Assembly (NCBI GenBank): GCA_016203945.1
Contig: JACQLT010000003.1
Span: 10,958 to 74,957 of the forward strand
Direction: 5' to 3'
Source of the DNA: Parcubacteria group bacterium
Lineage (GTDB): Bacteria; Patescibacteriota; Minisyncoccia; Minisyncoccales; UBA10102
Length of the DNA stretch: 64,000 nucleotides
The notes below the pieces were generated by a model that worked only from the letters and a program-made list of their open reading frames with translations, did no database searches and was not told the origin of the DNA. Below are positions 5,699 through 52,413 of the stretch, piece after piece (position 1 is the stretch's first letter; every line of letters begins with the position of its first letter). The translations under genes were made by a program, and so were the position numbers.

Positions 5699-5727
5699 TT
5701 GACAGGAAGAGAGATATATGCTATACT
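5699..5727 (+). promoter_or_regulatory. Near-consensus sigma70-type promoter
   Basis: TTGACA (5699-5704), exactly 17 nt of spacer, then TATACT (5722-5727). Confidence 0.55.
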
Positions 5728-5734
5728 GTATATA

Positions 5735-6181
5735 TCCTGGCAGCAGAGTGGGAGCTGTCGGATAAACGGAGAAGATCTCCGCGCCTTCCAGAAGAACCGG
5801 GAGGAAGCGTATTTCAACCGAAAGAACCGGCACCATCGGGAAGGACCCGATGGAGAGGAGATAGCTGTGATTGGCAATGTATTCAAAACGATTTTCTGGC
5901 CACTCCGCAAGCCCCTGGATTTCCTGATCCTGGACATCCTGCGCGAGTCTGTTCCTCTGTTGCGTCGGAGGAGGGAGAGGGACCATCTTCCGCAGAAGTG
6001 AAAGACGAGCTAGCACCAAGGTCTGGGGGTGGACCCACTCCACCCCCAACCCAAGTCCCGCTAAGGGTAACACCAAGGCGGACGTTTTGTTTTAGAGGGG
6101 TACGCATTAAAAAAGCTATCGCCCAATTAATGAGTTTTGTCGGGCTGGCAGTCGCAGGGCTTGACTGCTAATTTTGTTTTT
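5735..6181 (+). ncRNA. Orphan transcription unit without convincing ORF (candidate structured RNA; class unknown)
   Basis: Starts at the promoter at 5699. Contains strong hairpins: CCATCGGG/CCCGATGG (5833-5853) and TGGGGGTGGA/TCCACCCCCA (6024-6048). Ends at a terminator, GCAGTC/GACTGC (6148-6168) plus a T-run to 6181. The best in-unit ORF is only a 44-codon GTG ORF (5867..6001). Confidence 0.3.
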
Positions 6182-6189
6182 CGTATCAT
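6161..6189 (+). promoter_or_regulatory. Putative hrcA operon promoter
   Basis: TTGACT (6161-6166), 17 nt of spacer, then TATCAT (6184-6189). Confidence 0.5.
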
Positions 6190-6192
6190 AAT

Positions 6193-6227
6193 AAAGAGAG
6201 TATTCGCTTCAGCGAAACACTCTCTTT
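6193..6227 (+). promoter_or_regulatory. Inverted repeat at the hrcA transcription start (candidate HrcA operator, non-CIRCE sequence)
   Basis: AAAGAGAGT (6193-6201) pairs with ACTCTCTTT (6219-6227), with an inner TTCGCT/AGCGAA pair. It lies 4 nt after the -10 element and 11 nt before the hrcA ATG. Confidence 0.5.
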
Positions 6228-6237
6228 AACGAAAATT

Positions 6238-6930
6238 ATGGGGATTACGGAGAGACAAAAAACAATACTAGAAAATTTGGTGGCAGGATACATTCAGTCA
6301 GCTCACCCAATCAGCTCCCAATGGCTGGAAGAAGAAGGGGATTTTGATTTTTCTCCGGCCACCATTCGCAATGAGCTTATGGCGTTGACCGAAAGAGGAT
6401 ACTTGGAACAGCCTCACGTGTCAGCGGGAAGAGTTCCAACTGACCGAGGGTATAGGTTCGTGGTAGACGAGATTTTACAAGACCTTCAGGAGAAGGAACA
6501 GAGGCTGGAACAGGAAATGCGGGATTATTTCTCGCTGTTTGAACAACTTACTGAATCTTCTTCTGCCCTGGTGCTTGGGTACGGGCCAGGAGCCAAGCGA
6601 GTATTTCGAGAGGGATGGGAGCGGGTGCTCCGTGAGCCCGAGTTCGGAGAAAGAAGTTTTTTGTGGAACCTGACGAAGTTCGTAGAAGACATCGAGGAGA
6701 ATATCCGGGGGTTTCTTCCCGCAAAGGCAACAGAAGTGTATATTGGCAAAGAGAACCCGTTCTCTAAAGTGAAAGATTTTACCATCATCGTTCGCAGGTA
6801 CGGCATTGATTCTATAGAGGACGGCCTGCCTGCGCAGACAGGTTTGGTTGCCATGGTGGGCCCCAAGCGCATGGAGTACGAAAAGAATATTGAACTGATC
6901 ACTTCATATGGAAGAAGAAAAGACAACTGA
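6238..6930 (+). CDS. hrcA: Heat-inducible transcription repressor HrcA (short form)
   Basis: The N-terminal winged helix SPATIRNELMALTERGYLEQPHVSAGRVPTDRGYRFVVD is the HrcA signature. The protein is 230 aa, versus about 340 aa in typical HrcA. Confidence 0.85.
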   Translation: MGITERQKTILENLVAGYIQSAHPISSQWLEEEGDFDFSPATIRNELMALTERGYLEQPHVSAGRVPTDRGYRFVVDEILQDLQEKEQRLEQEMRDYFSLFEQLTESSSALVLGYGPGAKRVFREGWERVLREPEFGERSFLWNLTKFVEDIEENIRGFLPAKATEVYIGKENPFSKVKDFTIIVRRYGIDSIEDGLPAQTGLVAMVGPKRMEYEKNIELITSYGRRKDN

Positions 6931-7387
6931 AGAACCGCAGGGACAGCTGGAGAAGGCAGCAAAGGAGCGCGACGAGTATCTTGCAGGATGGCAGCGCTCG
7001 CGGGCAGACCTGATGAATTACAAGAAGGAGGAGATGGAACGCATTGGGAGTCTTATGCGATACGCCCAAGAAGAACTTCTTTTGAAATTGCTTCCGGTGC
7101 TGGATAATTTGGAGAGGGCCGAAAAACAGGCGAGCCAGCAGGACAAGGAAAGCAGCACGGTGCAAGGATGCTTTCTCGTGATTTCCCAGCTCAAAGAATT
7201 CTTACGGAACCAGGGAGTGGAGGCGCTGCATACAGAAGGAGAGAAGTTCAATCCAGAACTCCACGAAGCAGTAGGAGAGGAAGCCGCAGAAGGAAAAGAG
7301 CCCGGAACCGTGCTTGAAGAAGTCGAACGAGGATACCTGCTCTTGGGAAAATTGTTAAGACCTGCTAAAGTGAAGATTGCGAAATAA
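6908..7387 (+). CDS. grpE: Nucleotide exchange factor GrpE
   Basis: Contains [10 protein letters not shown]...[11 protein letters not shown] motifs. It sits between hrcA and dnaK. Confidence 0.9.
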
Positions 7388-7406
7388 TTCAATAATATAT
7401 GAATAT

Positions 7407-9248
7407 ATGGCAAAAATATTAGGAATAGACCTGGGCACCACTTTTTCTGCCATGGCAGTGGTGGAAGGAGGGGAGCCAAAAATCATTGAGAACAAGGAAG
7501 GCGCAAGGACCACGCCTTCTGTGGTTGCCTTGGCCAAGAATGGGGAGATTCTTGTCGGAATTCAGGCAAAGCGCCAACAGATCACCAATCCCAAAGGCAC
7601 CATATCCGTGGCAAAGCGTCTCATCGGCCGGAGATTTTCGGATGCTGAAGTCCAGCGCGACAAGACATTGCTGCCCTATGAGATCCGCGAGGACAAAGAT
7701 GGAGGGGTTGAAGTAAAGATGGGAGAGAAATGGTACAAGCCCCCTGAAATCTCAGCTATGGTGTTGCGCAAGCTCAAGGAGGATGCTGAGGCAAAGCTCG
7801 GAGAAAAGATCACGGAAGCCATCATTACGGTTCCCGCATACTTTGACGACAGTCAGCGCAAGGCGACCAAGGTGGCGGGCGAGATAGCGGGATTTGATGT
7901 CAAGCGCGTCATCAACGAGCCCACTGCCGCGGCGCTCGCCTACGGCCTTCAGAAAAAGAAAGACGAAAAGATCGTGGTGTACGACTTTGGAGGAGGGACC
8001 TTCGATATCTCAGTTCTTGAGGTGTCGGAGGACACCATTGAGGTGAAGGCGACCGGAGGAGACACGCACCTGGGCGGAGAAGACTTTGACCAGAAAATAG
8101 TGAACTGGCTCATTGAGCAGTTTAAGAAAGACCAGGGTATCGATCTTTCCCAGGATCCTTTGGCTTTGCAGCGCCTGAAAGAAGGGGCCGAGAAGGCAAA
8201 GATAGAACTTTCTTCTTCGACCGAAACCGAAGTCAACCTTCCCTTCATCACGTCTGACGCGGCAGGCCCCAAGCATTTACTGTTTCGGCTAGCTCGGGCG
8301 CAGTTGGAAACCATGGTGAAAGAATACGTTGACAAGTCCTTGAAGCTCATAGTTCAGACGCTCAAGGAGGCCAAGCTTTCTGAAAAGGAAATTGACGAGG
8401 TGGTACTCGTGGGAGGCCAGACCCGCATGCCGGCCATCCAGGAAGGGGTAAAGAAGCTGTTCGGCAAAGACCCGAACAGGAGCATTAATCCCGACGAAGT
8501 GGTGGCGCTGGGAGCTGCAATACAGGGAGGAGTCATGCAAGGAGACGTGAAAGACGTGCTCTTGCTGGACGTCACCCCGCTTTCCTTGGGTATTGAAACT
8601 TTGGGAAGCGTGAGCACCGTGCTCATTGCCAAAAACACCACGGTTCCTACATCAAAGAGCCAGATATTTTCTACCGCAGCCGACAATCAGACGTCTGTTG
8701 AGGTGCACGTGCTCCAGGGAGAGCGCCCGCTCGCGCAAGACAACAAGTCCTTGGGCAGGTTCGTCTTGGACGGCATCCCTCCGGCTCCCCGCGGGCTTCC
8801 CCAGATTGAGGTGACCTTTGACATTGACGCGAACGGAATATTGCAGGTGATTGCGAAAGACAAGGCATCGGGCAAGAACCAGAGTATTCGTATTGAGGGA
8901 TCCACCGGAATCTCCAAAGAAGAGGTGGAGCGTATGAGGAAAGAAGCCGAACTCCATGCAGAAGAGGACCAGAAACGCAGAGACCTCATTGACGCAAGAA
9001 ACAGCGCGGACGCGCTTCTGTATACAGCCGAGAAAGCGCTCAAGGACGCTGGAGACAAGGTGTCCTCGGAGGTGAAAAAAGAAGTGGAAGAGAAGGCAGG
9101 AGCATTGAAGAAGGTAAAGGATCAGGATATAATGGAGGATATACGGCAGGCCACGGACGCGCTTTCGCAAGCCCTGCAAAAGATAGGAACTGAAATGAAT
9201 AAGCAGGCTGAGCAAGGGCAAGAGCCAGAACAGCCCCAAGCCAACTGA
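7407..9248 (+). CDS. dnaK: Chaperone DnaK (Hsp70)
   Basis: Contains [22 protein letters not shown] and [10 protein letters not shown] motifs. The start is taken at ATG 7407 inside ORF 7377..9248. Confidence 0.97.
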
Positions 9249-19316: not shown

Positions 19317-19947
19317 TCAATATATGCATCTGTATTTTATTCGCCACGGAGAAAGCGTGTACAATGCAAAAGACACGGTTCAGCCTCCAGAAGCAGAACT
19401 TTCTAAGCTCGGCATCAAGCAGGCACAAGCGCTGGCAGAGCGGGCATCTCGTCTTCCGATTGAAGCTATACTCTCAAGTCCTTTTGTCCGTACCAGGCAG
19501 ACCGCAGAAATTATCAAAGAAGCAACGGGAAAAGAGGTTATATACACGGAACTTCTACAAGAGCGCAGAAGCCCGTCTGACATTGTCGGATTGAAGCGAA
19601 AAGATCCCCGTATCATATCCATTCGGAGAGAGCTGAGGATTCATGCCAGCAACCCTGCTTGGCATTATTCCGATGAAGAAAACTTCTCTGAGCTAAGAGA
19701 CCGCGCCGCCCAATTTTTAGAGTTCGTTTCTTCAAGAAATGAAGAACGCATTCTCGCGGTCACGCACGGGGATTTGCTCCGCATGGTTCTCATGGTCATG
19801 ATGCTGGGGAATGAAGTCGCCCCCGACATATTCTACCGCTTCAACGATTTTTTCAAGACGCGCAATACCGGCATTACTTTGTGCATACGGCATTCAGAAA
19901 AAGGATGGCAGCTACTCACCTGGAATGACCACGCCCATTTAGGGTAG
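19309..19947 (+). CDS. Histidine phosphatase (phosphoglycerate mutase family)
   Basis: LYFIRHGES catalytic RHG motif, plus a late VTHGD. Confidence 0.8.
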   Translation: MPNQYMHLYFIRHGESVYNAKDTVQPPEAELSKLGIKQAQALAERASRLPIEAILSSPFVRTRQTAEIIKEATGKEVIYTELLQERRSPSDIVGLKRKDPRIISIRRELRIHASNPAWHYSDEENFSELRDRAAQFLEFVSSRNEERILAVTHGDLLRMVLMVMMLGNEVAPDIFYRFNDFFKTRNTGITLCIRHSEKGWQLLTWNDHAHLG

Positions 19948-19962
19948 TATTCATTAAGATAT

Positions 19963-20343
19963 ATGAACCATTCCGACCAGTGGAAAAAGAAGTTGAGCAA
20001 GGAGCAGTACCACGTCATGCGGGAACAGGGGACGGAAGCCCCCTTTTCCGGCAAGTACTGGGATTCGCACGAGAAAGGCATGTTCGTGTGCGCAGCGTGC
20101 GGAGCAGAATTATTTTCTTCTGATACGAAGTTTGATTCGTCAAGCAGATGGCCCAGTTTTACCGAGCCTGCAAACCTTGAGCATGTCGTTCTCAAAGAAG
20201 ATATGAGTTATGGCATGAAGAGGACCGAGGTCGTATGCAAGAGATGTGGAGCGCACCTGGGTCATGTGTTTGACGATGGCCCCAAAGAGCGGGGAGGAAA
20301 ACGGTACTGCATCAACTCAGTATGCCTAGACCTCAAAAGATAA
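19963..20343 (+). CDS. msrB: Peptide-methionine (R)-S-oxide reductase
   Basis: Contains CAACGAELF...RWPSF...CKRCGAHLGHVFDDGP. Confidence 0.92.
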   Translation: MNHSDQWKKKLSKEQYHVMREQGTEAPFSGKYWDSHEKGMFVCAACGAELFSSDTKFDSSSRWPSFTEPANLEHVVLKEDMSYGMKRTEVVCKRCGAHLGHVFDDGPKERGGKRYCINSVCLDLKR

Positions 20344-20392
20344 TAGGCGCGTATTCGGATTTCGGTATTGACAGTTTCTATCCGCATGGTAC

Positions 20393-20644
20393 ATGTATTC
20401 TAATATACACGCAAAGGTCGAAGAATTCGTTGCTCAATATATCGCTAACGTTATGAACGGAGATAAGACCTGCGGTTGTGCACATCACCAAGCGTTCCCC
20501 GTGCTCGTCGTTCTTTTCGGCCTGTTGTTCTTGCTGGGAGAAATGAATGTTGTCGCGGCAAGCACGGTGAGCTTGGGCTGGCCCATCCTCGTCATCTTGG
20601 CTGGATTGCTCAAGCTGAGCAAGGGTATGTGCAAGTGCTGCTGA
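20393..20644 (+). CDS. Small 2-TM protein with Cys/His clusters
   Basis: CGCAHH before TM1 and a C-terminal GMCKCC. The start is ambiguous (20393 or 20453). Confidence 0.45.
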   Translation: MYSNIHAKVEEFVAQYIANVMNGDKTCGCAHHQAFPVLVVLFGLLFLLGEMNVVAASTVSLGWPILVILAGLLKLSKGMCKCC

Positions 20645-20670
20645 TATCATACTATATTGTCGGAACACGG

Positions 20671-20710
20671 ACCCCGCCAGTCCATGGACTGGCGGGGTTT
20701 TCGATTTTCG
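20671..20710 (+). terminator. Rho-independent terminator
   Basis: ACCCCGCCAGTCC/GGACTGGCGGGGT followed by ttttcgatttt. Confidence 0.75.
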
Positions 20711-20749
20711 ATCGCCATCGAGGCAATTTTTTGCTAGAATAGATTGGAC

Positions 20750-21949
20750 ATGAAGACATTGCGGATATTTAATCCCAGAACGAAGAGGAAGGAAGAGTTC
20801 AAAACAACAGACAGAAAGGCGGGGGTATACGTGTGCGGCATCACTCCGTATGACATCACGCATCTGGGGCATGCCTTTACCTACACGTTTTTTGACGTTC
20901 TCTTGCGGTATCTGCGGTACATCGGATACCAGGCGACATATGTGCAGAACCTTACCGACATTGACGACGACATCATCAAGAAGTCAAAAGAGCTGAATAA
21001 GAACTGGAGAAAGCTTGGAGAAGAGAATGCCCAGAAGTTTCTGCAGGACATGAAGTGGCTCAATAACGAACAGCCGGACGCGTATCCAAAAGCTACGGAT
21101 CATATCCGGGGGATACAGGAAATGATCAAGGTACTTCTCAAGCGAGGCGTTGCCTATGCAAAGCACGGGAGCGTGTATTTTTCCATTGCCAAAGACAAGT
21201 CCTATGGCAAGCTGAGCGGGTTATCAAGGAACCGGATGTTGCCCATCGCAAATCAGCGGGGGAATGATCCCAAGGATCCCAACAAAAGGGATTCCTTGGA
21301 CTTTATGTTATGGCAGGCGCGAAAGAAAGGGGAGCCCTTCTGGAATTCCCCGTGGGGGACCGGGCGCCCCGGGTGGCACATTGAGTGCAGTGTCATGTCC
21401 ACTTCGTATCTTGGAGATACCGTAGACATCCATGGTGGAGGATCTGATTTGATCTTTCCCCATCACGAGAGCGAGATTGCGCAGTCTGAAGCAGCAACCG
21501 GCAAGCGATTCGTAAGGCATTGGATGCATACCGGAATGCTGAAGTATAAAGGAGAAAAGATGTCGAAGTCCCTGGGTAATCTGGTACTGATAAGGAATTT
21601 GAAGAAGAAATACAGCGCAAACGCAATCAGAATGTATTTGCTTTCCCATCATTACCGCTCGGTATTTGAATTTTATGAAAAGAATTTGAAAGGGGCACAG
21701 CAGAGGGAGGAGTTGTTTAAGAAGGTATGGCGCTTGCAGTCGCAGACAGGAAGTTCACTTAACATTTCTGAATATAGGGAAGAATTCCACAAAGCTATGA
21801 ATGATGATATGAATACCCCACAGGCGCTAAAGACCATGGAACGCCTGGCTAAGCGCATCCTCAAAGAAAAAGAAAAGAATATTACCGCAGCCAAGGCGTT
21901 TCTAAACATCGCATTCGGCATTATGGGTCTGACCATAGAATACCAATGA
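20750..21949 (+). CDS. CysRS-family paralog of the MshC type (putative L-cysteine:glucosaminide ligase)
   Basis: Contains VCGITPYDITHLGHA, RGNDPKDPNKRDSLDFMLWQ, GRPGWHIECS and KMSKSLGN. It lacks the CysRS C-terminal tail. The ATG at 20750 lies 9 nt after TGcTAGAAT. Confidence 0.75.
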   Translation: MKTLRIFNPRTKRKEEFKTTDRKAGVYVCGITPYDITHLGHAFTYTFFDVLLRYLRYIGYQATYVQNLTDIDDDIIKKSKELNKNWRKLGEENAQKFLQDMKWLNNEQPDAYPKATDHIRGIQEMIKVLLKRGVAYAKHGSVYFSIAKDKSYGKLSGLSRNRMLPIANQRGNDPKDPNKRDSLDFMLWQARKKGEPFWNSPWGTGRPGWHIECSVMSTSYLGDTVDIHGGGSDLIFPHHESEIAQSEAATGKRFVRHWMHTGMLKYKGEKMSKSLGNLVLIRNLKKKYSANAIRMYLLSHHYRSVFEFYEKNLKGAQQREELFKKVWRLQSQTGSSLNISEYREEFHKAMNDDMNTPQALKTMERLAKRILKEKEKNITAAKAFLNIAFGIMGLTIEYQ

Positions 21950-22665
21950 CCAAGAACCTGAAAACCCCTAAAACCGCGCTTGCCGTGTTTGCGCATCCTG
22001 ACGACATGGATTTCAGCTCGTCTGGAACCATCGCAAAATGGGCTTTACGAGGGGCGATTATTACCTATTTGGTGTGTACAGACGGAAGCAAGGGTTCGGA
22101 AGATCCAAAGATCACCCCGCGAAAGCTGGCCGCGATCCGCAAGAAGGAACAGCTTGAAGCCGCCAAGATCCTCGGCGTGAAAGATGTCATATTCCTCGGA
22201 CATCGCGACGGAGAGCTCGTCGTAGATATGAAGCTTAAAGAGGCCATTGCCAGGGTGATCCGGCAAAAGAAGCCGGACCTGGTCATTACCCTGGACCCCA
22301 CGTTCCTATATTCCACGAAGCGCGGTTTTGTGAACCATTCAGACCATCGGGCAGCTGGTCAAGCCGCGATTGACGCCGTGTTTCCTCTGGCGCGCGACCG
22401 CCTAAATTTTCCTCTTCACGAGAAGCAGGGACTGGTCCCGCACAAGACAAACATACTGCTCTTGGTATCCTTTGACGAGCCCGAGCACTTTGAGGATATC
22501 ACCAAGACCTTTGCGAAGAAGCTGAAGGTCCTCCAAGCGCACAAGAGTCAGGTCGGAGATGCAGATCCTTCCTTTGCAAAGCGCATACGAGACCGCGCAC
22601 GCCAGCTTGGGAAGAAGGCCGGAATGTCGTATGCGGAGGGATTCAAAAAAATCGAGCTTTTATGA
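21946..22665 (+). CDS. PIG-L/LmbE family N-acetylglucosaminyl deacetylase
   Basis: VFAHPDDMDF and NHSDHRAAG motifs. Its start overlaps the upstream stop (ATGA). Confidence 0.85.
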   Translation: MTKNLKTPKTALAVFAHPDDMDFSSSGTIAKWALRGAIITYLVCTDGSKGSEDPKITPRKLAAIRKKEQLEAAKILGVKDVIFLGHRDGELVVDMKLKEAIARVIRQKKPDLVITLDPTFLYSTKRGFVNHSDHRAAGQAAIDAVFPLARDRLNFPLHEKQGLVPHKTNILLLVSFDEPEHFEDITKTFAKKLKVLQAHKSQVGDADPSFAKRIRDRARQLGKKAGMSYAEGFKKIELL

Positions 22666-23816
22666 CAGAACAAGAGGCCCTTGATTATCACAAGAAGAAA
22701 CGCGGCAAGATTGAGATTGCCGCCAAGACCTCAATTAGGACCAAGAAGGACTTACGCCTCGCATATACTCCAGGGGTCGCGTTTGCATCCCTGGCCATTG
22801 CAAAAGACAAGACGCAAGATCGCGTGCTGACAAACAAGGGAAACTCCGTAGCCATTATCACAGACGGCACCGCTGTTCTTGGCCTTGGGGATATCGGGCC
22901 GGAAGCCGCAATTCCGGTCATGGAAGGAAAATCAGCCATCTTCAAGTCGTTTGCAGGCATTGACGGATACCCCATTTCCCTGGCCGAGAAAGATCCAAAG
23001 AAGATCATTGATATTATCCTTGCCTTAGCACCCAACTATGCCGGCATCAACCTGGAAGACATTTCAGCTCCTCGATGCTTTGAGATTGAGCGCACCTTAC
23101 GGAGGAAACTTGAGATCCCTGTGTTTCACGACGACCAGCACGGAGCCGCGATCATTGTTGTAAGCGCGCTCGTCAACGCGCTCTCTCTTGTAAAGAAGAA
23201 AGCAGAAGACATTAAGCTCGTGGTCAACGGAGCAGGGGCGGCCGGCATTGCGACAATCCATCTTCTGCTCGCATACGGAGTAAAACACATCACCGCTGTG
23301 GACAAGCAGGGCATTCTTCACAAAAGAGCAAAGGGCATGCACAAGTACCAAGCGGAAATTGCAGCCCTGATCAATCCAAAAAGAAGAGGAGGGCTTAAAG
23401 AGGCGATTGAGGGAGCGGATGTCTTCATCGGATTCTCCGTCGGAAACGTTCTGACAAAATCCATGGTGGCTTCCATGGCAAAGAAGGCCATTGTGTTCGC
23501 GTGTGCGAATCCAACGCCAGAAATCAACCCAAAAGATGCAAAACAGGCGGGCGCATATATTGTTGCAACCGGAAGATCCGACTATCCAAATCAGATCAAC
23601 AACGCGCTTGTGTTCCCCGGACTCTTCAAGGGATTGCTTGAGGCGGGAGCAGCTGAAATTACTCCGCAAGCCATGATCTGCGCCGCAACCTGTCTTGCCG
23701 GGCTGGTAAAGAAGCCGAGTCCCGGCAACATCGTCCCTTCGCTTTTTAATCGGAGGGTGGTGGAAACCGTGGCCTTTACCATACGCCAGCCCGGGGTGTG
23801 CGTGTGCAAGTATTGA
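22662..23816 (+). CDS. NAD(P)-dependent malic enzyme (short form)
   Basis: Contains LAYTPGVA, ITDGTAVLGLGDIGPEAAIPVMEGK and VVNGAGAAG. Its start overlaps the upstream stop. Confidence 0.9.
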   Translation: MTEQEALDYHKKKRGKIEIAAKTSIRTKKDLRLAYTPGVAFASLAIAKDKTQDRVLTNKGNSVAIITDGTAVLGLGDIGPEAAIPVMEGKSAIFKSFAGIDGYPISLAEKDPKKIIDIILALAPNYAGINLEDISAPRCFEIERTLRRKLEIPVFHDDQHGAAIIVVSALVNALSLVKKKAEDIKLVVNGAGAAGIATIHLLLAYGVKHITAVDKQGILHKRAKGMHKYQAEIAALINPKRRGGLKEAIEGADVFIGFSVGNVLTKSMVASMAKKAIVFACANPTPEINPKDAKQAGAYIVATGRSDYPNQINNALVFPGLFKGLLEAGAAEITPQAMICAATCLAGLVKKPSPGNIVPSLFNRRVVETVAFTIRQPGVCVCKY

Positions 23817-23851
23817 CAAGCGCTCTTGAAAAGAGGGAAGGTAGAGTAATC

Positions 23852-24082
23852 ATGAAGAAACCTAAAAACGAGAGTAAGCGAGACCGATTTCGCCGCTTAG
23901 CCCAGCGCAGGACGAATTTGGTTATTAAGCGCTTGAAGATTCTTGGCAACTGCGCGGATAAGGGAAGGTACGAATACATGAAAGAGGATATGGAGCGCAT
24001 CTTCACTGCCATAGACAGAAGATTGAATAAAACGAAAGCAAGGTTCGATCTCCCTGTAGATAGAGAAGAGTTTAAGCTATGA
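23852..24082 (+). CDS. Hypothetical basic 76-aa protein
   Basis: A GGGAAGG-type SD lies upstream of ATG 23852. The stop overlaps the next gene's start. Confidence 0.4.
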   Translation: MKKPKNESKRDRFRRLAQRRTNLVIKRLKILGNCADKGRYEYMKEDMERIFTAIDRRLNKTKARFDLPVDREEFKL

Positions 24083-24333
24083 TTAATACAGAACATCTTT
24101 TGAAAGTTACCGCAGTTTGGACAAGCATTGTCTACGTTGTCTGTTTTGCGGTCATCGGGTTTTTCCCCGGAGTTCGCCCGGGATTTATGATGTACGGCTT
24201 GCATATGAACGTTGCTGGTTGGCAGAATATCTTCAGCTTCCAGACGCTTCTTTCCGGCCTGATTATCTGGAACATCATTGCAGGGCTCTCGGTGTGGCTT
24301 TTTGCCTTTCTTTTCAACAATATTAAGAAGTGA
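24079..24333 (+). CDS. Hypothetical 3-TM membrane protein
   Basis: 84 aa and strongly hydrophobic. It is translationally coupled to the preceding ORF. Confidence 0.5.
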   Translation: MINTEHLLKVTAVWTSIVYVVCFAVIGFFPGVRPGFMMYGLHMNVAGWQNIFSFQTLLSGLIIWNIIAGLSVWLFAFLFNNIKK

Positions 24334-31654: not shown

Positions 31655-32775
31655 GTTTTTTGTTCTCTCGAAGCGTTAAGCAATAATCCGATGGCGATAA
31701 GCTCTGATACAAGGGCAGATCCCCCATAGCTCACGAAAGGCAAGGGAATGCCGGTGAGCGGAAGAATGCCAGCTAGAGCTCCGATGTTCACGAAGGCCTG
31801 TATAGAAATCCAGGAGACGATGCCGACGGCAAGAAGTTGCGGAAACCTGTCTTTAATCGCGGCAGCTATGAAATAGCCACGGAGCGCGAACGCAAGAAAC
31901 AGCAGGACGAAAAGTGAGGCTCCAATAAACCCCGCCTCTTCTGAAAATACGGCAAAGATGGAGTCCGACATGGGCTGCGGGAGAAAGCCGAATTTCTGCA
32001 CGCTCAGCCCGAGTCCTCTTCCGAACAATCCTCCTGACCCGATGGAAATGAGCGCCTGCTTGATCTGATATCCGCTTCCCAGGGGATCCAGCGAGGGATC
32101 AAGAAATGTCTGGATGCGGGCCATTCGGTATGGGGCAACCTTGATCAGCAAGAGGACGGCCGCTATCCCCAGCCCTCCAAGAGCAAGGATGTGCGAGATC
32201 GGAGTTTTTGCTGAGAAATACATAATGCTGGCAATCAGGGCGAGAACAATGAGGGTGCCGAGGTCCGGTTGGGCGATGAGAAGGAGGGCCGCCACTCCCA
32301 GGATAGCAAGAAAAGGAAGCAGCGTCTGCCAGAATTCCGGGCTCTTCCCTTTTCCGAAATTCCTTTTCTCCATTCTGGAATCCAGCCAGGCCGCAAGATA
32401 AATGATAAAAGCGAGCTTGAAGAGCTCGGATGGTTGAAATGAGAATGAGCCGAGGAGTATCCATCTGCTGGCTCCCCCGCTCGCCCCTCCGACAACAGGG
32501 AGAAATACGGCTCCCATGGCAGCCAGGCTCCCCAGGAGAAGCAGAGGGCTTTTTTTCTTCAAAAGTTTCAGGGAAAACATGTATGCAATGCCTCCCAGCA
32601 CTAATCCCGGCAGAAGGCCAAAGAGCAGCTGATGGTTCAAAAAGAACAGCGTGCTCCCTGTCTTTTGACGAGAGAACGAAGCAGAAACGCTCGCCAGGAC
32701 GAGAATGCCAAGGAAGACCAGGAGTACGATGGTTGCGACAAGAACAAGATCCGGTTTATTTCTTTTTTTTTGCAT
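31651..32775 (-). CDS. ftsW: SEDS protein FtsW
   Basis: 10-TM FtsW/RodA family protein (SDSIFAVFSEEAGFIG, LPFVSYGGS). It sits between murD and murG. Confidence 0.9.
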   Translation of the reverse strand: MQKKRNKPDLVLVATIVLLVFLGILVLASVSASFSRQKTGSTLFFLNHQLLFGLLPGLVLGGIAYMFSLKLLKKKSPLLLLGSLAAMGAVFLPVVGGASGGASRWILLGSFSFQPSELFKLAFIIYLAAWLDSRMEKRNFGKGKSPEFWQTLLPFLAILGVAALLLIAQPDLGTLIVLALIASIMYFSAKTPISHILALGGLGIAAVLLLIKVAPYRMARIQTFLDPSLDPLGSGYQIKQALISIGSGGLFGRGLGLSVQKFGFLPQPMSDSIFAVFSEEAGFIGASLFVLLFLAFALRGYFIAAAIKDRFPQLLAVGIVSWISIQAFVNIGALAGILPLTGIPLPFVSYGGSALVSELIAIGLLLNASREQKT

Positions 32776-34027
32776 ATTTCATCACGTATCGTTTAAACTG
32801 ATCTCCGCGATCTTTGAAATCTCTGAACATATTGAATGAGGCCGATGCCGGGGAAAGCAAGCATATATTCCCTTTCGGGGTGTGCGCGTAGCTTAGGCGT
32901 ACCGCCTCTTTCATGTCTGAAGCAATACAGTGAGAAATGTTTTTTCTTACATCCCGGAGGATCTTCTTGCCAGTATCCGGAAATAGGATGAGGAGGCGAA
33001 CGCTGCTTTTTTCAATCTCATGGGCAAGTTCTCGGTACGACAGTCCCCTATCCAGCCCTCCTGCGATCAAAGTATGCGGGTGTAGCTTCTTGAGGGCAGC
33101 ATATGTTGCCGCAGGATTTGTTGCAGCGGAATCGTTCACGAACGTAATGCCTCGAAATGTTCCAACCGGCTCCATCCTATGAGCAAGCGGCTTGAATTTC
33201 CTGATGGCAGCAGCCACCCCCGTTTTAGAAATGCCGAGCAATTTGCCGACGATAACCGCAGGTTCCGTTGCCGCCACCCATGCTATTCCAGACCGAGATT
33301 TTTCTATTCTTTTCTTTCTAGTAAATGGAATCTTCCTTCCTTTGGAGAGCCGGGCAAGACTTGCCGCGTTTCTGTTCTGAGCGTCATATATGACGATGTC
33401 TCCCTTTTTTTGGAACCTGGCAATGTTTGATTTTGCTTTCAAATATTCTTTCAGGGTTCCGTGGCGATCCAAATGCTCTGGAAACACGTTGAGAATTATT
33501 GCGATATGCGGACTTTGCTCGAGATCTGCCAGCTGAAAGCTTGAGAGCTCGTATACGAAAACGTCCCCCTGTTTTGCTTTTTGCAGCAGAGAGAGCGAAG
33601 GAGTCTCAATATTGCCCACCAGAAAGGCGCGCCTCCCCGCTTCTTTGAGTACGCCGTATATAAGCGAAGATGTTGTGCTTTTACCTTTTGTTCCTGTGAC
33701 GCCTATGATGGTTCCGGGGCAGTTGGCAAAGAACAGGGCGGTTTGTGACGTGGCCCTTTGGCCGTTCCGCATGTATGGTTTTATCTTCCAGAGCGGAATG
33801 CCCGGAGATCGCACCAAAACATCATACTTTGGGATCGCCCTAAGGTAATTTTTGCCCAAATGCCATATGACGCGTTTCTTACGACCGTGAGAAACGCGGT
33901 ATTGCTCATCTGCAACTCCGAAGCGCTGCTCTAGAAATTTTTTCCTCAAAAACAAAAAAGTGTCTTTCCCTTCTCTTCCAAACCCGAGGATAAGAATTGA
34001 TTTGTTTTTGAGCTCTGAAAGCAGCAT
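32756..34027 (-). CDS. murD: UDP-MurNAc-L-Ala:glutamate ligase MurD
   Basis: GVTGTKGKSTTSSLI P-loop and Mur ligase domains. Confidence 0.9.
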   Translation of the reverse strand: MLLSELKNKSILILGFGREGKDTFLFLRKKFLEQRFGVADEQYRVSHGRKKRVIWHLGKNYLRAIPKYDVLVRSPGIPLWKIKPYMRNGQRATSQTALFFANCPGTIIGVTGTKGKSTTSSLIYGVLKEAGRRAFLVGNIETPSLSLLQKAKQGDVFVYELSSFQLADLEQSPHIAIILNVFPEHLDRHGTLKEYLKAKSNIARFQKKGDIVIYDAQNRNAASLARLSKGRKIPFTRKKRIEKSRSGIAWVAATEPAVIVGKLLGISKTGVAAAIRKFKPLAHRMEPVGTFRGITFVNDSAATNPAATYAALKKLHPHTLIAGGLDRGLSYRELAHEIEKSSVRLLILFPDTGKKILRDVRKNISHCIASDMKEAVRLSYAHTPKGNICLLSPASASFNMFRDFKDRGDQFKRYVMKYAKKKK

Positions 34028-34091: not shown

Positions 34092-35393
34092 CTAAGTCAA
34101 GGAATTTTTGAGAATACGCGCAAGCGCAGGAGGAACGAGGTTGCGTTTGTTCCACGAACGCAGAATTTTATTCGCTTCCCTAGTATCCTTAGTCCGATCA
34201 AGGATGGAAAGGGCGGCGTTGACCTCTTCTGAGGTGCCGACGCACTCGAAAGGCTTGAATCCCCTCTCCCCCGTGAGCTGGCCCATGAGAGGCGCGAGAG
34301 ATTTGTCCTTGAGAAGATTCTTGTTGAAGATTCTTTCTAGGGTTTTTTGCGCGACGAACGGAGAAATAATAATGTAGGTAAACAAGCATTTAGGGCATCT
34401 GCCGCACCACGTTTGGGCCCTAGTTTTTCGAGCGTTATTGCAGCTCATGAATACCGAGAAATATTTTGGAAAGCAGCTAAAGATTTTTGCGATCTGCAGG
34501 TCAGAAAGCGGTCGCAAAAAACTGAAATACTCAAGGTCTTGCAAAAGAAACTGCTTGGAATATCGGCGAAATCGTTTCTCAAAGTCAAAGCTTTTTGAAT
34601 ATTGATGGTTTATCGTATTCCCGAGATATCGCACGTTCCCTTCGTTTGAGCTCTTTTCGTTTGAGACCGCGACGAACCTGTAATCAAAGAGCGCTGCCAC
34701 AAGCGCGCCGAGAAACGCAAGATAAGCTGAGAACGGCGTGTGCCCGTTCAAAAATCCTTTCCTGTTGAGCTCAAGGAGCTTTGGGTCAATCGTGCGCAGG
34801 ACCGTGATTGGGGATTTCCCCCCCGCTCTTTTGATGATGGCCAGTTGCGGCTTTTTTGGATTAAGGACAAAGGGCCGGACATCCATGCGCTTTAAGAGCT
34901 CAAGGGTTACCGCAGAATCTTTTCCTCCTCCCACCGGCACTAATATTCTATTTTTTAAGCGGAAAGAGTGTTTTGCCGAAGCGAAGGCGAACACTTTTTC
35001 CGCTGTAATGGCAAGAAAGTTTTTCTTGGTAAAATCGATCTTATTCTGATAAAAGAACTCTCCGAGGCCCCGCACGAAAAGATTCTTCCACCAGGCAAGC
35101 TGTCGTGCATCCAAAGTTTCATCCTGCACGATAATTTGAGGGCTGCAAGTTGCCTTCCAATAGCTGGGCAGTTCCATCATGCCAAGATGAAATACAAGAT
35201 TATTGAGAGCGCTCTTCCCCACTCTCTTGAGATTTTTTTCTCCTACATTTTTTATGAGAGCTTTGGGAGTAAACCGAATATCGGGGGGAACCCTAAAGTC
35301 AAATGAGACGTGCAGGTCCCCTCCCTGGAGCTTGTATGAATATCCTTTGTAGAAAAACTTGGGATAGCGCGTTCTGAGTTGCGAGATGGTCAT
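34092..35393 (-). CDS. PP-loop (adenine-nucleotide alpha-hydrolase-like) ATPase embedded in the mur operon; possible MurL-type epimerase
   Basis: VPVGGGKDSAVTLELL PP-loop-like motif and a C-terminal WCGRCPKC cluster. The protein is 433 aa and its start overlaps the mraY stop. Confidence 0.6.
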   Translation of the reverse strand: MTISQLRTRYPKFFYKGYSYKLQGGDLHVSFDFRVPPDIRFTPKALIKNVGEKNLKRVGKSALNNLVFHLGMMELPSYWKATCSPQIIVQDETLDARQLAWWKNLFVRGLGEFFYQNKIDFTKKNFLAITAEKVFAFASAKHSFRLKNRILVPVGGGKDSAVTLELLKRMDVRPFVLNPKKPQLAIIKRAGGKSPITVLRTIDPKLLELNRKGFLNGHTPFSAYLAFLGALVAALFDYRFVAVSNEKSSNEGNVRYLGNTINHQYSKSFDFEKRFRRYSKQFLLQDLEYFSFLRPLSDLQIAKIFSCFPKYFSVFMSCNNARKTRAQTWCGRCPKCLFTYIIISPFVAQKTLERIFNKNLLKDKSLAPLMGQLTGERGFKPFECVGTSEEVNAALSILDRTKDTREANKILRSWNKRNLVPPALARILKNSLT

Positions 35394-36499: not shown

Positions 36500-37431
36500 A
36501 TATAGCCGTCATGCGTCCAGTCAACAAGCTTGCGCATTTCCCCAAAGCGGTCTCCCGTTCCCAGGATGACGTTGACGGTGTACCCTTTGTTCTTGGGGCT
36601 CTGCAGGAGAAGGATGAGGGTTCCTTGCGCCAGGTCTGTCTGGCCGGTCTTTCCTCCGAGAACCTTGGTGCGCCAGCCGTTTGAGTGCACGAATTCATTC
36701 GTGTTGACGTAGGGGCCGAATTCGGGAAGCACGAGGATCTTGAACACCTCGGGATGCTCCCGCTTTATGAACACGGCGAGCTCGGCAAGATCTTTGGCGC
36801 TTGAGAGGTTCGGCAATTTCTCAGGATTCTCCGGATCAAGGCCGTTCGGATTTACGAACAAAGTGTTCGTCAGCTTCAGGGTGTCTGCCCGATGGTTCAT
36901 GCGGTTGATGAAGTGCTCTTGCCCGATGTGCTCAGCTAAGGCTGTTGCCGCGTCATTGCTTGATTCTAAGAGCAGAGGGTACAACATCTCCTGCACGGAA
37001 AGCGTCTGTCCCTTTAAAAGCTTTCCCTGATCCCCTTCTTCTGCGAGAGCTTTGGCGCTTACGAGGATTTGCTCCTCTGGGCCGTAGGATTCCAGAGATA
37101 CGAGAGCCGTCATGAGTTTCGTGAGAGAAGCGATCGGAAGCGCGCGATCCTGGTTTTTTGCGAATAGCACCTGCCCCTCCCTTCCCGGAACAACAAGAAA
37201 GCTGAATGCGGCTGCAGCTCGGATATCGGGAGCTGCGACGCCGGATTTTAGCGTCGGCCGGATTTCCTCAAGCTGTTTTTGCAGAGCGTCTGCAGAGGAA
37301 TCTGCCGACAGGCGAGCTAACTCATGCCAGAAGAACAGATCCTTAAGCATGGAAATTCCCGTGCCCACAAGAAACCACAGGGCAAAGCTTGTGAGGCAGG
37401 CTCCAAGGAATATCTTCGTATTGCGCGTCAT
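36493..37431 (-). CDS. D-alanyl-D-alanine carboxypeptidase (peptidase S11)
   Basis: SxxK (ASLTK), SxN (SSND) and KTG (GGKTGQT) motifs, with an N-terminal TM. Confidence 0.85.
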   Translation of the reverse strand: MTRNTKIFLGACLTSFALWFLVGTGISMLKDLFFWHELARLSADSSADALQKQLEEIRPTLKSGVAAPDIRAAAAFSFLVVPGREGQVLFAKNQDRALPIASLTKLMTALVSLESYGPEEQILVSAKALAEEGDQGKLLKGQTLSVQEMLYPLLLESSNDAATALAEHIGQEHFINRMNHRADTLKLTNTLFVNPNGLDPENPEKLPNLSSAKDLAELAVFIKREHPEVFKILVLPEFGPYVNTNEFVHSNGWRTKVLGGKTGQTDLAQGTLILLLQSPKNKGYTVNVILGTGDRFGEMRKLVDWTHDGYIW

Positions 37432-38856: not shown

Positions 38857-40008
38857 CTAGCGCACTAACTGGGTCCGCTTCGCTTCTTCGTAGAAATTCA
38901 GGACTTGTTTTGCGATGACCGGCCACGCGTATCGCTGAGCTTCTTTTTTTCCCCACGCGCCGAGTTCTTTTCTCAACTGAGGCTTTTTAATAAACCGGTC
39001 AATCGTTTCAGCCAGCAGGCGGGAGTTTCCCACGGGGACGAGCCCAGACGCCCCTTTGGTGCCTTCCAAGAACTGCCGATATCCCCGATTCGCAAATGCG
39101 ACGATAGGAAGGCCGCACGCCATGGCTTCCAGGAGCACCATGCCAAAGCTCTCTCCGTAGAGAGCTGGGCTGCAGAAGATGTCTGCCTGCTGATATGCGG
39201 AGATTAGCTCTTCATCGGTTTTCTTTCCGAGAAACCGTATATTTTGCAATTTGTTCTTTTTTATAAATGCCGCGCACTTTTTTTGTTCTTCTCCCTCTCC
39301 CACGACAAGGAGCCGCAGCTGCGGGCGCGTCTTCTTGTCCTGAGCAGGGTCGAAGGGCTGGAGCAGCTTCATTGCTTCTAGCAGCAAGAGAAGTCCTTTG
39401 CGTTCTTCCAGACGCCCCACAAATAACAAGGTTATGGCGTCGCTCGGTTTTTTGAAAGAGGCCGGTTTAAATATTGTGATATCAATGCCGTTTGAGATGA
39501 TGCGCTTGGGTCCCCGATACCCTTTTGCCATCTCCATGGCTACCGGAGAAACTGCAATGACTCCTTGGATCTTCCAGTTGAGGACTTTTGTCACCATTGC
39601 GGGAAGCCAGGGAAGGTTGCGCATGAGCTCGCTTCCGTCTGGATTTGAATGAAGCGTCATGATGTTTGTGGCTTTTGAAAACGAAAGGATTTCCAGTATG
39701 GAAGGAAATCCAAAATTATGAAAATGAAGAACGTCAAAACGTTCTCGCTTTAAGATTTTTTGCAAGGAGAGAAGATTGAAATACAGGGATATATCCGCCT
39801 GGCTTGCGTTGAACGGAATAGGAAATGCCGTGCCCACGAGCACGACATCCTTACCGTACTTTGCGGCAGACTCGGAGCGCGAACGCCTGGGCACGATGAT
39901 TTTGGAAGAAACCCCCCGTTTCTCAAACTCATGGTGGAGATTGAGAATATGACTTTTGACTCCTCCCGGGGCCTGGAACGAAGAGGAAGAGATGAATCCT
40001 ACTTTCAT
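38857..40008 (-). CDS. Glycosyltransferase family 4
   Basis: GT-B fold with GGVKSHILNL at the N-terminus and an E-x7-E region (ESFGMVLLEAMACGLP). Confidence 0.85.
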   Translation of the reverse strand: MKVGFISSSSFQAPGGVKSHILNLHHEFEKRGVSSKIIVPRRSRSESAAKYGKDVVLVGTAFPIPFNASQADISLYFNLLSLQKILKRERFDVLHFHNFGFPSILEILSFSKATNIMTLHSNPDGSELMRNLPWLPAMVTKVLNWKIQGVIAVSPVAMEMAKGYRGPKRIISNGIDITIFKPASFKKPSDAITLLFVGRLEERKGLLLLLEAMKLLQPFDPAQDKKTRPQLRLLVVGEGEEQKKCAAFIKKNKLQNIRFLGKKTDEELISAYQQADIFCSPALYGESFGMVLLEAMACGLPIVAFANRGYRQFLEGTKGASGLVPVGNSRLLAETIDRFIKKPQLRKELGAWGKKEAQRYAWPVIAKQVLNFYEEAKRTQLVR

Positions 40009-51018: not shown

Positions 51019-52413
51019 ATGATGCGCGCGTATAACTCCCTTACGAAGAAGAAAGAAGAAATAAAGCCGGGACAAGGCAAAAAGATCAAACTGTTTGTTT
51101 GCGGACCTACGGCATACGACTTCTCGCATCTCGGGCACGCGAGAACATATATCGTCTTTGACGCCATGGTCAGATACTGGAGATCCCTTGGCTTTGGCGT
51201 CTTCTACCTCCAGAACATCACGGACATTGATGACAAGATCATCCAAAGGGCCACAGAGCAAGGACAAGATCCCCTGACTCTAGCCGATACCTTTGCCGAG
51301 TATTACTTTGAAGATATGGAAGTTCTTGGCATACGAAGCGTGAGCAAATACGCCAAGGCGACTAATTATATCCAGGAAATCATCTCCCAGGTGCAACGCT
51401 TGGAAGAACAGGGATACGCATATCGTATTGAGGATGGCGTCTACTACGACGTCACCAAGTTCAAGGGATACGGAAAGCTTTCTGGAAGAACGACTGAGGG
51501 GGCAGAAGACGCTGTCTCCCGCATTGACGAATCAATAACAAAAAGGCACAAGGCAGACTTTGCCCTCTGGAAACTTTCCAAGGAGGATGAGCTCGCCTGG
51601 ACGAGTCCCTGGGGGGACGGCCGCCCTGGCTGGCATATTGAAGACACCGCAATCACGGAAAAGGAGCTTGGCGAGCAGTACGACGTTCACGGAGGAGCAC
51701 GCGACCTTCTCTTCCCTCATCATGAAGCCGAAATAGCCCAAATGGAGGCGCTCTCCGGCAAGGCACCCCTGGTGAAGCACTGGATCCATACGGGACTCCT
51801 CACCGTTGAAGAGGAGAAGATGGCAAAGTCGCAGGGCAACTTCATCACCATCAGGGAGTTTATTGAAGAATATTCTGCGCGGGCAATGCGTTTCCTCATC
51901 CTTAGCTCTCACTGGCACTCCCCTATTGACTACTCGACGGCTCTGGTTCAGCAGACGGAACAAGATCTCAAACGCATTGATGAATTTTTATCAAAGCTGG
52001 AATCCGTTGAAAGCTCGAATAGAACCAATGCGTGGCAGAAACCTCTCAAGAGGTCAGAGAAAGAATTTTGGGCGGCCCTAGAAGACGATTTCCACACGCC
52101 AAAAGCAATCGCCTCTCTCTTCAACCTCATCCGCTCCGTCAATCCTCTGTTTTCAAATAATGAATTGAACAAGGAAGGAGCTCAGACAATCCTCGCGTTT
52201 CTTCAGAAAGCAGACGAAGTACTCAGTTTTCTGTTCTGGGGCAGAGAAGAAACAGAAGAAGCTCCTCAGGAAATCCAAACACTTCTGGAAGAGCGCGAGC
52301 AAGCAAGAGCATTAAATGACTGGAGCAAAGCAGACGAGCTGAGAGATCGCATAGCCAAGGTTGGTTGGCAGATAGACGACACTTCTGACGGCCCTCGCCT
52401 TAAGAAGCAATAA
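51019..52413 (+). CDS. cysS: Cysteinyl-tRNA synthetase (canonical)
   Basis: VCGPTAYDFSHLGHA and KMAKSQGN, plus a full C-terminal anticodon-binding region ending WSKADELRDRIAKVGWQIDD. Confidence 0.93.
   Translation: MMRAYNSLTKKKEEIKPGQGKKIKLFVCGPTAYDFSHLGHARTYIVFDAMVRYWRSLGFGVFYLQNITDIDDKIIQRATEQGQDPLTLADTFAEYYFEDMEVLGIRSVSKYAKATNYIQEIISQVQRLEEQGYAYRIEDGVYYDVTKFKGYGKLSGRTTEGAEDAVSRIDESITKRHKADFALWKLSKEDELAWTSPWGDGRPGWHIEDTAITEKELGEQYDVHGGARDLLFPHHEAEIAQMEALSGKAPLVKHWIHTGLLTVEEEKMAKSQGNFITIREFIEEYSARAMRFLILSSHWHSPIDYSTALVQQTEQDLKRIDEFLSKLESVESSNRTNAWQKPLKRSEKEFWAALEDDFHTPKAIASLFNLIRSVNPLFSNNELNKEGAQTILAFLQKADEVLSFLFWGREETEEAPQEIQTLLEEREQARALNDWSKADELRDRIAKVGWQIDDTSDGPRLKKQ

Follow-up and report, generated by a model that had tools for sequence, protein, structure and literature searches.

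An MshC-like cysteine ligase without an anticodon-binding domain is coupled to a LmbE/PIG-L deacetylase in a Parcubacteria genome: a candidate cysteinyl-aminosugar pathway

Introduction

The ligase MshC, which joins cysteine to glucosamine (GlcN)-inositol in mycothiol synthesis, shares its class I fold with cysteinyl-tRNA synthetase (CysRS), and a survey of thiol genes found mshA-D only in Actinobacteria (PMC6282198). A second kind of CysRS relative, CysRS* of Desulfobacterales, is encoded downstream of selC*-selB* and carries a PTVS motif in its first connective peptide (CP1) (Mukai et al. 2016/2017, PMC5389517); in CysRS itself the CP1 loop reads the acceptor stem's first base pair (PMC5389517). 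The LmbE/PIG-L enzymes, to which the deacetylases of thiol synthesis belong, are defined by an HxDD + H zinc/base motif, a conserved Arg and an H-x-D-H motif (PMC4101496). Here we describe a stretch of 64,000 nucleotides (the window in the following) from a Parcubacteria group bacterium (assembly GCA_016203945.1, contig JACQLT010000003.1, positions 10,958 to 74,957), which encodes a full-length CysRS and, 29 kb away, a short CysRS paralogue of MshC type whose gene overlaps that of a LmbE/PIG-L deacetylase. Judged from sequence and by analogy with known pathways, it is fairly probable that the short paralogue is a tRNA-independent cysteine:aminosugar ligase and that it makes, together with the deacetylase, a compound of the form Cys-GlcN-R. 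The genes concerned are:

20750..21949, + strand: MshC-like cysteine ligase without anticodon domain, 399 aa (profiles, alignment, predicted structure and trees)
21946..22665, + strand: LmbE/PIG-L zinc de-N-acetylase, 239 aa (PF02585, 105 bits), in ATGA overlap with the ligase
22662..23816, + strand: NAD(P) malic enzyme, short form, 384 aa (malic-enzyme domains), in ATGA overlap with the deacetylase stop
51019..52413, + strand: full-length CysRS, 464 aa, with DALR and CysS_C domains (PF01406 and CysS_C profiles)

The ligase open reading frame gives 399 residues from an ATG, or 401 from an upstream TTG, and its protein sequence is 100% identical to MBI4123162.1 from a Parcubacteria-group metagenome-assembled genome (MAG). 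Both overlaps are 4 nt long and can be read from the sequence, the first between the ligase stop and the deacetylase start at 21946-21949 (CAATGACC) and the second between the deacetylase stop and the malic enzyme start at 22662-22665 (TTATGACA). An earlier, sequence-only reading of this DNA had pointed out these genes, several of their motifs and the two ATGA overlaps, all of which were found in place.

The MshC-like ligase

The two CysRS paralogues of the window have the catalytic domain PF01406 in common (381 bits in the ligase, 363 bits in the full-length copy), whereas the anticodon-binding domain CysS_C is found by Pfam in the 464-aa copy only and is absent from the ligase. With the NCBI model for cysS (TIGR00435) the ligase scores 433.4 bits over positions 1-385 of 466 and the full-length copy 472 bits over positions 1-465; with the model for MshC (TIGR03447) the ligase matches positions 16-401 of 411 with 381.9 bits against 270 bits for the full-length copy. 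In an alignment of 79 sequences the short forms of about 400 aa have 0-18 residues past the common core, and the ligase has none, compared to 52-85 in canonical CysRS.

What remains in the ligase has its catalytic motifs intact. The HIGH motif (as HLGH), KMSKS and the DALR helical domain are present, residues C29, C213, H238 and E242 align with the zinc and cysteine site positions of CysRS and MshC, and the HIGH/KMSKS and zinc-site residues are invariant across the ligase family. The ligase further carries VCGITPYDITHLGHA and RGNDPKDPNKRDSLDFMLWQ, as quoted in the sequence-only reading, the latter being a connective peptide (CP) insertion of MshC type. This insertion, with the consensus ANERG[NG]xPxDPxK[KR]DPLDFVLWQ, is found in every short form including mycobacterial MshC, with which it aligns without gaps; it is 4 residues longer than the AGARIEVxExK loop and is absent from all aligned canonical CysRS. 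The motif CGITPYD is also common to the short forms, MshC included. With no anticodon-binding domain and with the MshC-type insertion standing where CysRS has its CP1 loop, both elements used in tRNA recognition are gone or remodelled in the ligase.

The AlphaFold2 model of the ligase (pLDDT 93.3, pTM 0.92) superposes best on MshC from M. smegmatis, with a root mean square deviation (rmsd) of 1.5 Å and template modelling (TM) scores of 0.91/0.91 for 3c8z and a query-normalised TM score of 0.93 for 8hfn, the rmsd on MshC structures being 1.5-2.0 Å. The rmsd relative to E. coli CysRS is 3.0 Å, and the target-normalised TM score is only 0.80 for the tRNA-bound structure 1u0b_B since the anticodon domain has no counterpart in the ligase. 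MshC and this family have kept the insertion motif in common although they are only 38% identical overall, and we speculate that it may contact the shared portion of their acceptors, the glucosamine ring.

Phylogenetic position

Neighbor-joining trees were built on about 380 shared core columns, at first with 79 sequences and then with 103 after 24 relatives of the window's CysRS had been added and the set realigned. Controls and outgroup were canonical CysRS, which at 40-50% identity made up most of the listed matches of a profile search of genome contigs with the family alignment. Canonical full-length CysRS were split from all short forms in 97/100 (79 sequences) and 99/100 (103 sequences) bootstrap replicates, and the family of the ligase was monophyletic in 100/100 and 98/100. 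Mycobacterial MshC and the MshC-like proteins of Acidimicrobiia formed a different clade (98/100). Over the core columns the ligase is 63% identical to its own family, 43% to the Acidimicrobiia-like proteins, 38% to MshC and 38% to the window's CysRS. These trees thus place the ligase within a superclade that contains MshC, but it is not an MshC orthologue. The proposal of the sequence-only reading, that the paralog is of MshC type rather than a true CysRS, is in this form borne out by the missing anticodon domain, the shared CP insertion, the end-to-end MshC fold and the 97-99% split from CysRS: the trees put the paralog outside the CysRS clades, and profiles and structure prediction show no anticodon-binding domain, in contrast to what the sequence-only reading had named as refuting it. 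Orthology to MshC does not follow, given the separate clade, the 38% identity, the score of 382 bits where 485 are called for and a sequence that is slightly nearer to CysRS.

The family comprises at least 120 clusters (at 90% identity) that are 55-84% identical to the window's ligase and nearly all about 400 aa long. Its hosts are Parcubacteria, Patescibacteria, Nealsonbacteria and Gottesmanbacteria as well as Deltaproteobacteria and Desulfobacteraceae MAGs, and its annotation is in conflict, the members being CysRS to NCBI and MshC to JGI/KEGG. The matches of a profile search of metagenome contigs were all relatives of at most 51% identity, which belong to other short-form clades. Further clades of about 400 aa with the MshC indel and without an anticodon domain were seen in Levybacteria, Acidobacteriota, Chloroflexota/Dehalococcoidia, Acidimicrobiia and soil metagenomes. 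Of ten short-form representatives tested outside mycobacteria not one reached the MshC cutoff, the Acidimicrobiia 'MshC' scoring only 380-430 bits, and MshC-like proteins thus form a broad and mostly unnamed continuum. One ancient loss of the anticodon domain and one CP1 insertion appear to underlie a superclade of tRNA-independent cysteine ligases, and actinobacterial MshC would then be only one branch of it.

The full-length CysRS carries VCGPTAYD, HLGH, KMAKS, FPHHEAE and the tail WSKADELRDRIAKVGWQIDD. At residue 209 it has Asp (GRPGWHIEDTAI; GWHIED) where E. coli CysRS has the zinc ligand Cys209. The same Asp variant was found in 39 of 150 cluster representatives (at 50% identity), including 17 of the 19 nearest, and the idea that the full-length copy is degenerate and the short copy the real synthetase was ruled out on the conservation of this variant in its clade. 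The substitution is a trait of the lineage and not decay, and a whole clade of presumably functional CysRS thus uses an altered metal/cysteine site. The full-length CysRS is presumed, on its sequence, to be the housekeeping enzyme that charges tRNA-Cys, and the short copy would therefore be redundant for translation.

Linkage to the deacetylase

Eleven independent contexts of the ligase family, the window included, were compared. A PIG-L gene lies directly downstream of the ligase gene (overlapping or within about 20 nt) in seven of them, which span ligase identities of 56-84% and both candidate phyla radiation (CPR) and non-CPR genomes. Given with the identity of the ligase to that of the window, these are:

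the window itself
L126, 84%
L127, 63%
L128, 59%, Nealsonbacteria
L002, 59%
L004, 56%
L006, 62%

By profile search no PIG-L gene was found within ±8 kb of canonical cysS in about 60 loci, and none beside the other short-form clades, many of whose contigs were short. The coupling to PIG-L is thus, with 7/11 family contexts against 0/~60 canonical loci, specific to the clade of the ligase and conserved across phyla. The sequence-only reading had proposed conservation of the pair in relatives as a check, and this check came out in its favour. In a related clade, two loci (L105 and L108) have PIG-L divergently adjacent to the ligase-like gene.

These data bear on the possibility that the short copy is still a tRNA synthetase, either a minimal CysRS for tRNA-Cys or a CysRS*-like enzyme for an unusual tRNA, and that it lies next to a deacetylase without functional meaning. 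The ligase is above the equivalog cutoff for cysS, it keeps HIGH, KMSKS, the four residues of the CysRS zinc site and the DALR helical domain, and a CysRS* without anticodon-binding domain is known from Desulfobacterales (PMC5389517), while some family members come from MAGs of Desulfobacteraceae and Deltaproteobacteria. On the other hand, a full-length CysRS is encoded in the same window, the loop that reads the acceptor stem shows exactly the remodelling seen in MshC, and the trees group the family with MshC-type proteins and not with CysRS. Moreover, one would hardly expect an enzyme of translation to be coupled to PIG-L through overlapping genes in several phyla. Neither a tRNA gene nor selB was found beside the family genes (15 related loci scanned for tRNA, and the gene calls of the 11 contexts), and the only tRNAs of the window, for Lys, Gln and Glu, are all far from the ligase. 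Identity with CysRS* was rejected on this absence of an adjacent tRNA or selB, and a role as tRNA synthetase is in general considered very unlikely.

In the Deltaproteobacteria MAG context (L001) it is a GT4 glycosyltransferase, and not PIG-L, that follows the ligase; its full-length match to the MshA model scores 357 bits (cutoff 462), and the BshA model gives 102 bits. The same locus (5336-9075) has upstream of the ligase a metallo-beta-lactamase (MBL)-fold hydrolase with a weak likeness to glyoxalase II (85 bits with GloB, cutoff 200), and these three genes could be a thiol-related cluster. The 120 closest listed homologues of the L001 glycosyltransferase are labelled Thermodesulfobacteriota, Rokubacteria, Nitrospiraceae or Methylomirabilota.

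In L127 (8607-11918) and L128 (8676-11927) a YruB-type glutaredoxin-like gene and a glyceraldehyde-3-phosphate dehydrogenase (GAPDH) gene precede the ligase–PIG-L pair. TrxB, enolase and a His-phosphatase are found further upstream, and the two loci, each with a ligase of about 60% identity to that of the window, have this arrangement in common. Next after the pair come acetyl-CoA synthetase and pyruvate phosphate dikinase. The pair thus sits among genes of central carbon metabolism in these compact genomes. Some neighbours were considered as support for thiol metabolism and set aside: the flavoprotein of L127/L128 is TrxB and not YpdA, the glutaredoxin-like protein is of YruB type and not a mycoredoxin, the methyltransferase of L002 is UbiG-like and the MBL-fold protein of L001 only weakly GloB-like.

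The deacetylase

The LmbE signature of the deacetylase is complete, with H17-P-D19-D20 (AHPDD), R65 and H131-S-D133-H134 (HSDH), and the catalytic and zinc motifs are intact and invariant across the family. Compared to solved structures it matches archaeal diacetylchitobiose deacetylase (Dac) best (138 bits, full length), followed by LnmX (90), BshB1 (49), BC1534 (46) and MshB (30, N-terminal half). The same order was obtained with a profile built from eight PIG-L partners of ligase genes: Dac 181/159/149, LnmX 125, BshB1 80 and MshB 50 bits. Scores with the NCBIfam models were 98 bits for BshB1 (TIGR04001, cutoff 182.5), 99 for BshB2 (TIGR04000, cutoff 195.3) and 42 for MshB (TIGR03445, cutoff 224.4). 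The enzyme is therefore predicted to be an N-acetylglucosamine (GlcNAc) de-N-acetylase of a Dac-like subfamily, and the assignment of the sequence-only reading to the MshB/BshB family has to be revised, since Dac is nearest (181 bits, compared to 80 for BshB and 50 for MshB). Dac of Thermococcales acts on small soluble sugars, and it works in chitin catabolism alongside a glucosaminidase.

Instead of making a soluble redox thiol, the pair might alternatively deacetylate and cysteinylate a bound GlcNAc, in a cell-wall glycan, a glycolipid anchor or a glycoprotein, or the PIG-L protein might be an Mca-like salvage amidase. GlcNAc decorated with lipid, peptide or sugar is a substrate of LmbE enzymes, among which there are also amidases (PMC4101496), a glycosyltransferase for a soluble acceptor was not seen in most contexts, and CPR genomes are rich in genes of envelope glycosylation, the window having PMT_2, GtrA and a mur cluster. 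Against this, both proteins, read by eye, look cytoplasmic and soluble, without a hydrophobic N-terminus, the nearest relatives of the deacetylase (Dac) act on small soluble sugars, and the characterised members of the superclade (MshC) all use a small soluble acceptor. A bound substrate is accordingly held to be unlikely.

The predicted pathway

In the pathway that we favour, the PIG-L/LmbE hydrolase would, as expected from its family, remove the N-acetyl group from a GlcNAc-R small molecule and expose the 2-amine. The ligase, with its conserved HIGH/KMSKS motifs and zinc/cysteine site, would activate L-cysteine with ATP as Cys-AMP, and it would then transfer the cysteinyl group to the 2-amine instead of to tRNA, giving Cys-GlcN-R; this last step is suggested by the analogy to MshC, the lost tRNA elements and the coupling to the deacetylase. 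As the product one would most plausibly expect a low-molecular-weight thiol of mycothiol/bacillithiol type, or its precursor. The resemblance of the deacetylase to diacetylchitobiose deacetylase favours a simple glycoside or free sugar, e.g., GlcNAc or a chitobiose-like one; the MshA-like glycosyltransferase that adjoins the ligase in L001 suggests that the acceptor is inositol-phosphate-like or related in at least one non-CPR lineage.

Malate as R is not indicated. The malic enzyme of the window (PF00390 91 bits, PF03949 69 bits; NF009501 376 bits over the catalytic part) follows the ligase–deacetylase pair only here and in the 84%-identical relative L126, and as the linkage is found only in this closest relative the enzyme, though co-transcribed with the pair here, is probably a passenger of the operon and not part of the functional module. 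A link to bacillithiol through malate, as put forward in the sequence-only reading, is not upheld in view of this narrow linkage, of a deacetylase that is not BshB-like and of the absence of a BshA-like gene from the window.

It can still be asked whether the locus belongs to a genuine mycothiol (GlcN-inositol) or bacillithiol (GlcN-malate) pathway, with the ligase a divergent MshC or a replacement for BshC. Many family members are annotated as MshC by JGI/KEGG, the MshC-type indel and architecture are shared, inositol is conceivable as R in lineages such as that of L001 where an MshA-like glycosyltransferase adjoins the ligase, BshB1 and BshB2 are the best NCBIfam matches of the deacetylase, and the operon includes a malic enzyme both in this genome and in L126. 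However, the ligase clade is separate from that of MshC and the Acidimicrobiia-like proteins (98%) and the ligase is below the MshC cutoff, the deacetylase is far below the cutoffs for BshB (99 vs 182-195) and MshB (42 vs 224) and nearer to Dac, and the malic enzyme is linked in the 84% relative only. BshA, MshA, Ino1 and MshD are not in the window, and mshA-D were placed only in Actinobacteria by the gene survey (PMC6282198). Such a pathway is therefore regarded as quite improbable.

A number of observations weigh against a cysteinyl-aminosugar pathway as favoured here. The ligase passes the NCBI equivalog cutoff for cysS (433.4 > 340) and stays below that for MshC (381.9 vs 485.1), so that in the scoring proposed by the sequence-only reading the short copy spans the MshC model and lacks CysS_C, but falls short of MshC (382 < 485) and exceeds cysS (433 > 340). 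In phmmer searches the ligase is nearer to CysRS structures (344-350 bits) than to MshC (294 bits), it is 44% identical to canonical CysRS (range 42-44%) compared to 38% to mycobacterial MshC, and it retains Glu as the fourth zinc ligand of CysRS type (PHHESE) where mycobacterial MshC has PHHE[FY]S. For MshC no acceptor-bound structure has been described, and its acceptor site lacks a structural definition. Three of the 11 family contexts (L005, L007 and L130) have no linked partner, and the redox neighbours in the CPR loci are generic (TrxB 317-326 bits vs YpdA 78-88; glutaredoxin of YruB type). Finally, no MshA/BshA-type glycosyltransferase, inositol-phosphate synthase or MshD-like GNAT was found in the 64-kb window, which is about 6% of an assumed genome of about 1 Mb, and a Patescibacteria label is carried by none of the 120 closest listed homologues of the L001 glycosyltransferase. 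The sequence-only reading had suggested a search for a GNAT gene of MshD type, and none was found in the window.

It is nevertheless tempting to speculate further, although we consider the full proposal rather unlikely as it stands, that a cysteinyl-aminosugar thiol is made with a minimal two-gene module in CPR and in several lineages of anaerobes, of Desulfobacterota type and others, in which a Dac-like deacetylase would act on a salvaged GlcNAc- or chitobiose-like sugar without a dedicated glycosyltransferase and a distinct MshC-like ligase would add the cysteine. Mycothiol and bacillithiol would then be joined by a third branch of Cys-GlcN thiols, and CPR bacteria would for the first time have a low-molecular-weight thiol system assigned to them.

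Other genes of the window

Upstream of the ligase and on the same strand the following features were found:

19963..20343, + strand: MsrB gene (MsrB profile, 173 bits), syntenic in the 84% relative L126, upstream of the terminator-like hairpin
20393..20644, + strand: small Cys/His-rich LiaF-TM-like membrane protein (domain profile), kept beside msrB in L126
20669..20700, + strand: G+C-rich terminator-like hairpin of 14 bp (9 G-C), followed by a T-rich tail and separating the gene for the small membrane protein from the ligase
20712..20740, + strand: promoter-like site TCGCCA-17-TAGAAT, its -10 preceded by TG, located 10 nt ahead of the ligase ATG (consensus match only)

Because the hairpin and the promoter-like site precede the ligase, msrB and the gene for the small membrane protein are probably a transcription unit apart from it, and ligase, deacetylase and malic enzyme are probably transcribed on their own. 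Matches to the promoter consensus are not commoner in the real than in shuffled sequence, which concerns the site at 20712..20740. The sequence-only reading had noted msrB and the Cys/His-rich peptide on the same strand; both are present, but a link to the ligase is doubtful with a terminator-like hairpin in between. An Rfam scan of 19900-24100 revealed no cis-regulatory RNA. The small protein (20393-20644; 7585-7776 in L126) has two transmembrane segments, CGCAHH and a C-terminal CKCC, and is encoded directly after msrB in both genomes.

The GT4 gene at 38857..40008, named by the sequence-only reading as a candidate MshA/BshA, turned out to be a generic GT4 inside a mur/fts cluster. It scores 84 bits with MshA (TIGR03449) over the C-terminal half only (cutoff 462) and 61 bits with BshA (TIGR03999, cutoff 274), and its neighbours are murC, aspS, the DD-peptidase gene dacA, mraY, a MurL-like gene, murD and ftsW. 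The MurL-like gene (34092-35393, - strand), beside murD (32756-34027), matches NF041275 (UDP-MurNAc-L-Ala-L-Glu epimerase) with 272 bits, below the cutoff of 700, and hints that peptidoglycan synthesis in this Parcubacteria genome follows an L-Glu route of MurD2/MurL type. AspRS (37428-38816, - strand) has 462 aa, of which two separate stretches match the 590-position model of bacterial AspRS, and it is apparently without the bacterial insertion (GAD) domain. S-adenosylmethionine (SAM) synthetase (45369-46322, - strand) has 317 aa, its N-terminal and central domains being shorter than the Pfam models. The remaining genes of the window are of housekeeping type, i.e., the dnaK operon, tRNA synthetases, replication, EF-P and SAM synthetase.

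Significance

In literature searches an MshC-like ligase or a Cys-GlcN thiol was not found described for CPR or the other host lineages, and automated pipelines have put the label 'MshC' on some members since 2015 (e.g., KKS96361.1). What is new here is that MshC-type ligases of a clade of their own are joined in an operon to a deacetylase that is likewise distinct and Dac-like, while the chemistry extends a known theme. We know of no low-molecular-weight thiol in CPR/Patescibacteria, and to our knowledge many anaerobes are without genes for glutathione, mycothiol and bacillithiol. A conserved ligase–deacetylase module of mycothiol type is a testable candidate for the redox buffer missing from these lineages, or for a cysteinylated sugar metabolite of a new kind. 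The NCBI name cysteine--tRNA ligase arises because the cysS cutoff is passed on the catalytic domain alone, and probably neither of the names in use, CysRS and MshC, is right in detail; the misnaming affects how many 'duplicate CysRS' and 'mycothiol genes' are counted in metagenomes.

Comparison with known systems

Of the known systems MshC is like the ligase in its CysRS-derived class I fold with HIGH and KMSKS, in the 4-residue CP insertion (ERG[GN]xP..K.D.LD..LW) and the ITPYD motif, in the close superposition (rmsd 1.5-2.0 Å, TM 0.91) and in its position on the same side of the 97-99% split from CysRS. The likeness extends to the genetic ties of the ligase, which are to a family of GlcNAc de-N-acetylases and, in the case of L001, to an MshA-like glycosyltransferase. 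The ligase differs from MshC by its 38% identity, its 382 bits where 485 are set, its separate and well-supported clade and its PHHESE with the Glu ligand in place of PHHE[FY]S, and it occurs in Patescibacteria and Desulfobacterota-type genomes whereas MshC occurs in Actinobacteria. The gene arrangement differs too: the ligase is operon-fused to its deacetylase, no PIG-L was seen beside the Acidimicrobiia-like genes, and mshB and mshC are dispersed in mycobacterial genomes. The partner of the ligase is moreover Dac-like and not MshB-like.

Canonical CysRS (E. coli 1LI5/1U0B; TIGR00435) has in common with the ligase the catalytic domain, the four residues at the zinc positions, KMSKS and the DALR domain, at 42-44% identity and 433 bits. 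In contrast to it, the ligase has no anticodon domain, has the MshC-type insertion as CP1 loop, is phylogenetically separate, and coexists with a full-length CysRS while being coupled to a sugar deacetylase. CysRS* resembles the ligase as a CysRS paralogue without anticodon-binding domain that has an altered CP1 and is found beside a normal CysRS, and some members of the ligase family are from Desulfobacterota MAGs; the ligase has no adjacent tRNA or selB and has the MshC-type insertion in CP1, and it is set apart from CysRS* by the description of the latter, not by sequence.

For the partner enzyme the closest described system is Dac of Thermococcales (8BGN, 3WL4, 3WE7), which the family profile matches over the full length with 149-181 bits, about 100 above BshB1, and which has the HxDD and HxDH metal/catalytic motifs and a similar length. 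Unlike Dac the partner is translationally coupled to a cysteine ligase and found in bacteria, and its substrate is predicted. BshB and MshB are more distant, the partner scoring far below their curated cutoffs and matching MshB in the N-terminal half only; superfamily and catalytic motifs are nevertheless the same, and the partner would share with both the role of deacetylation before cysteine ligation.

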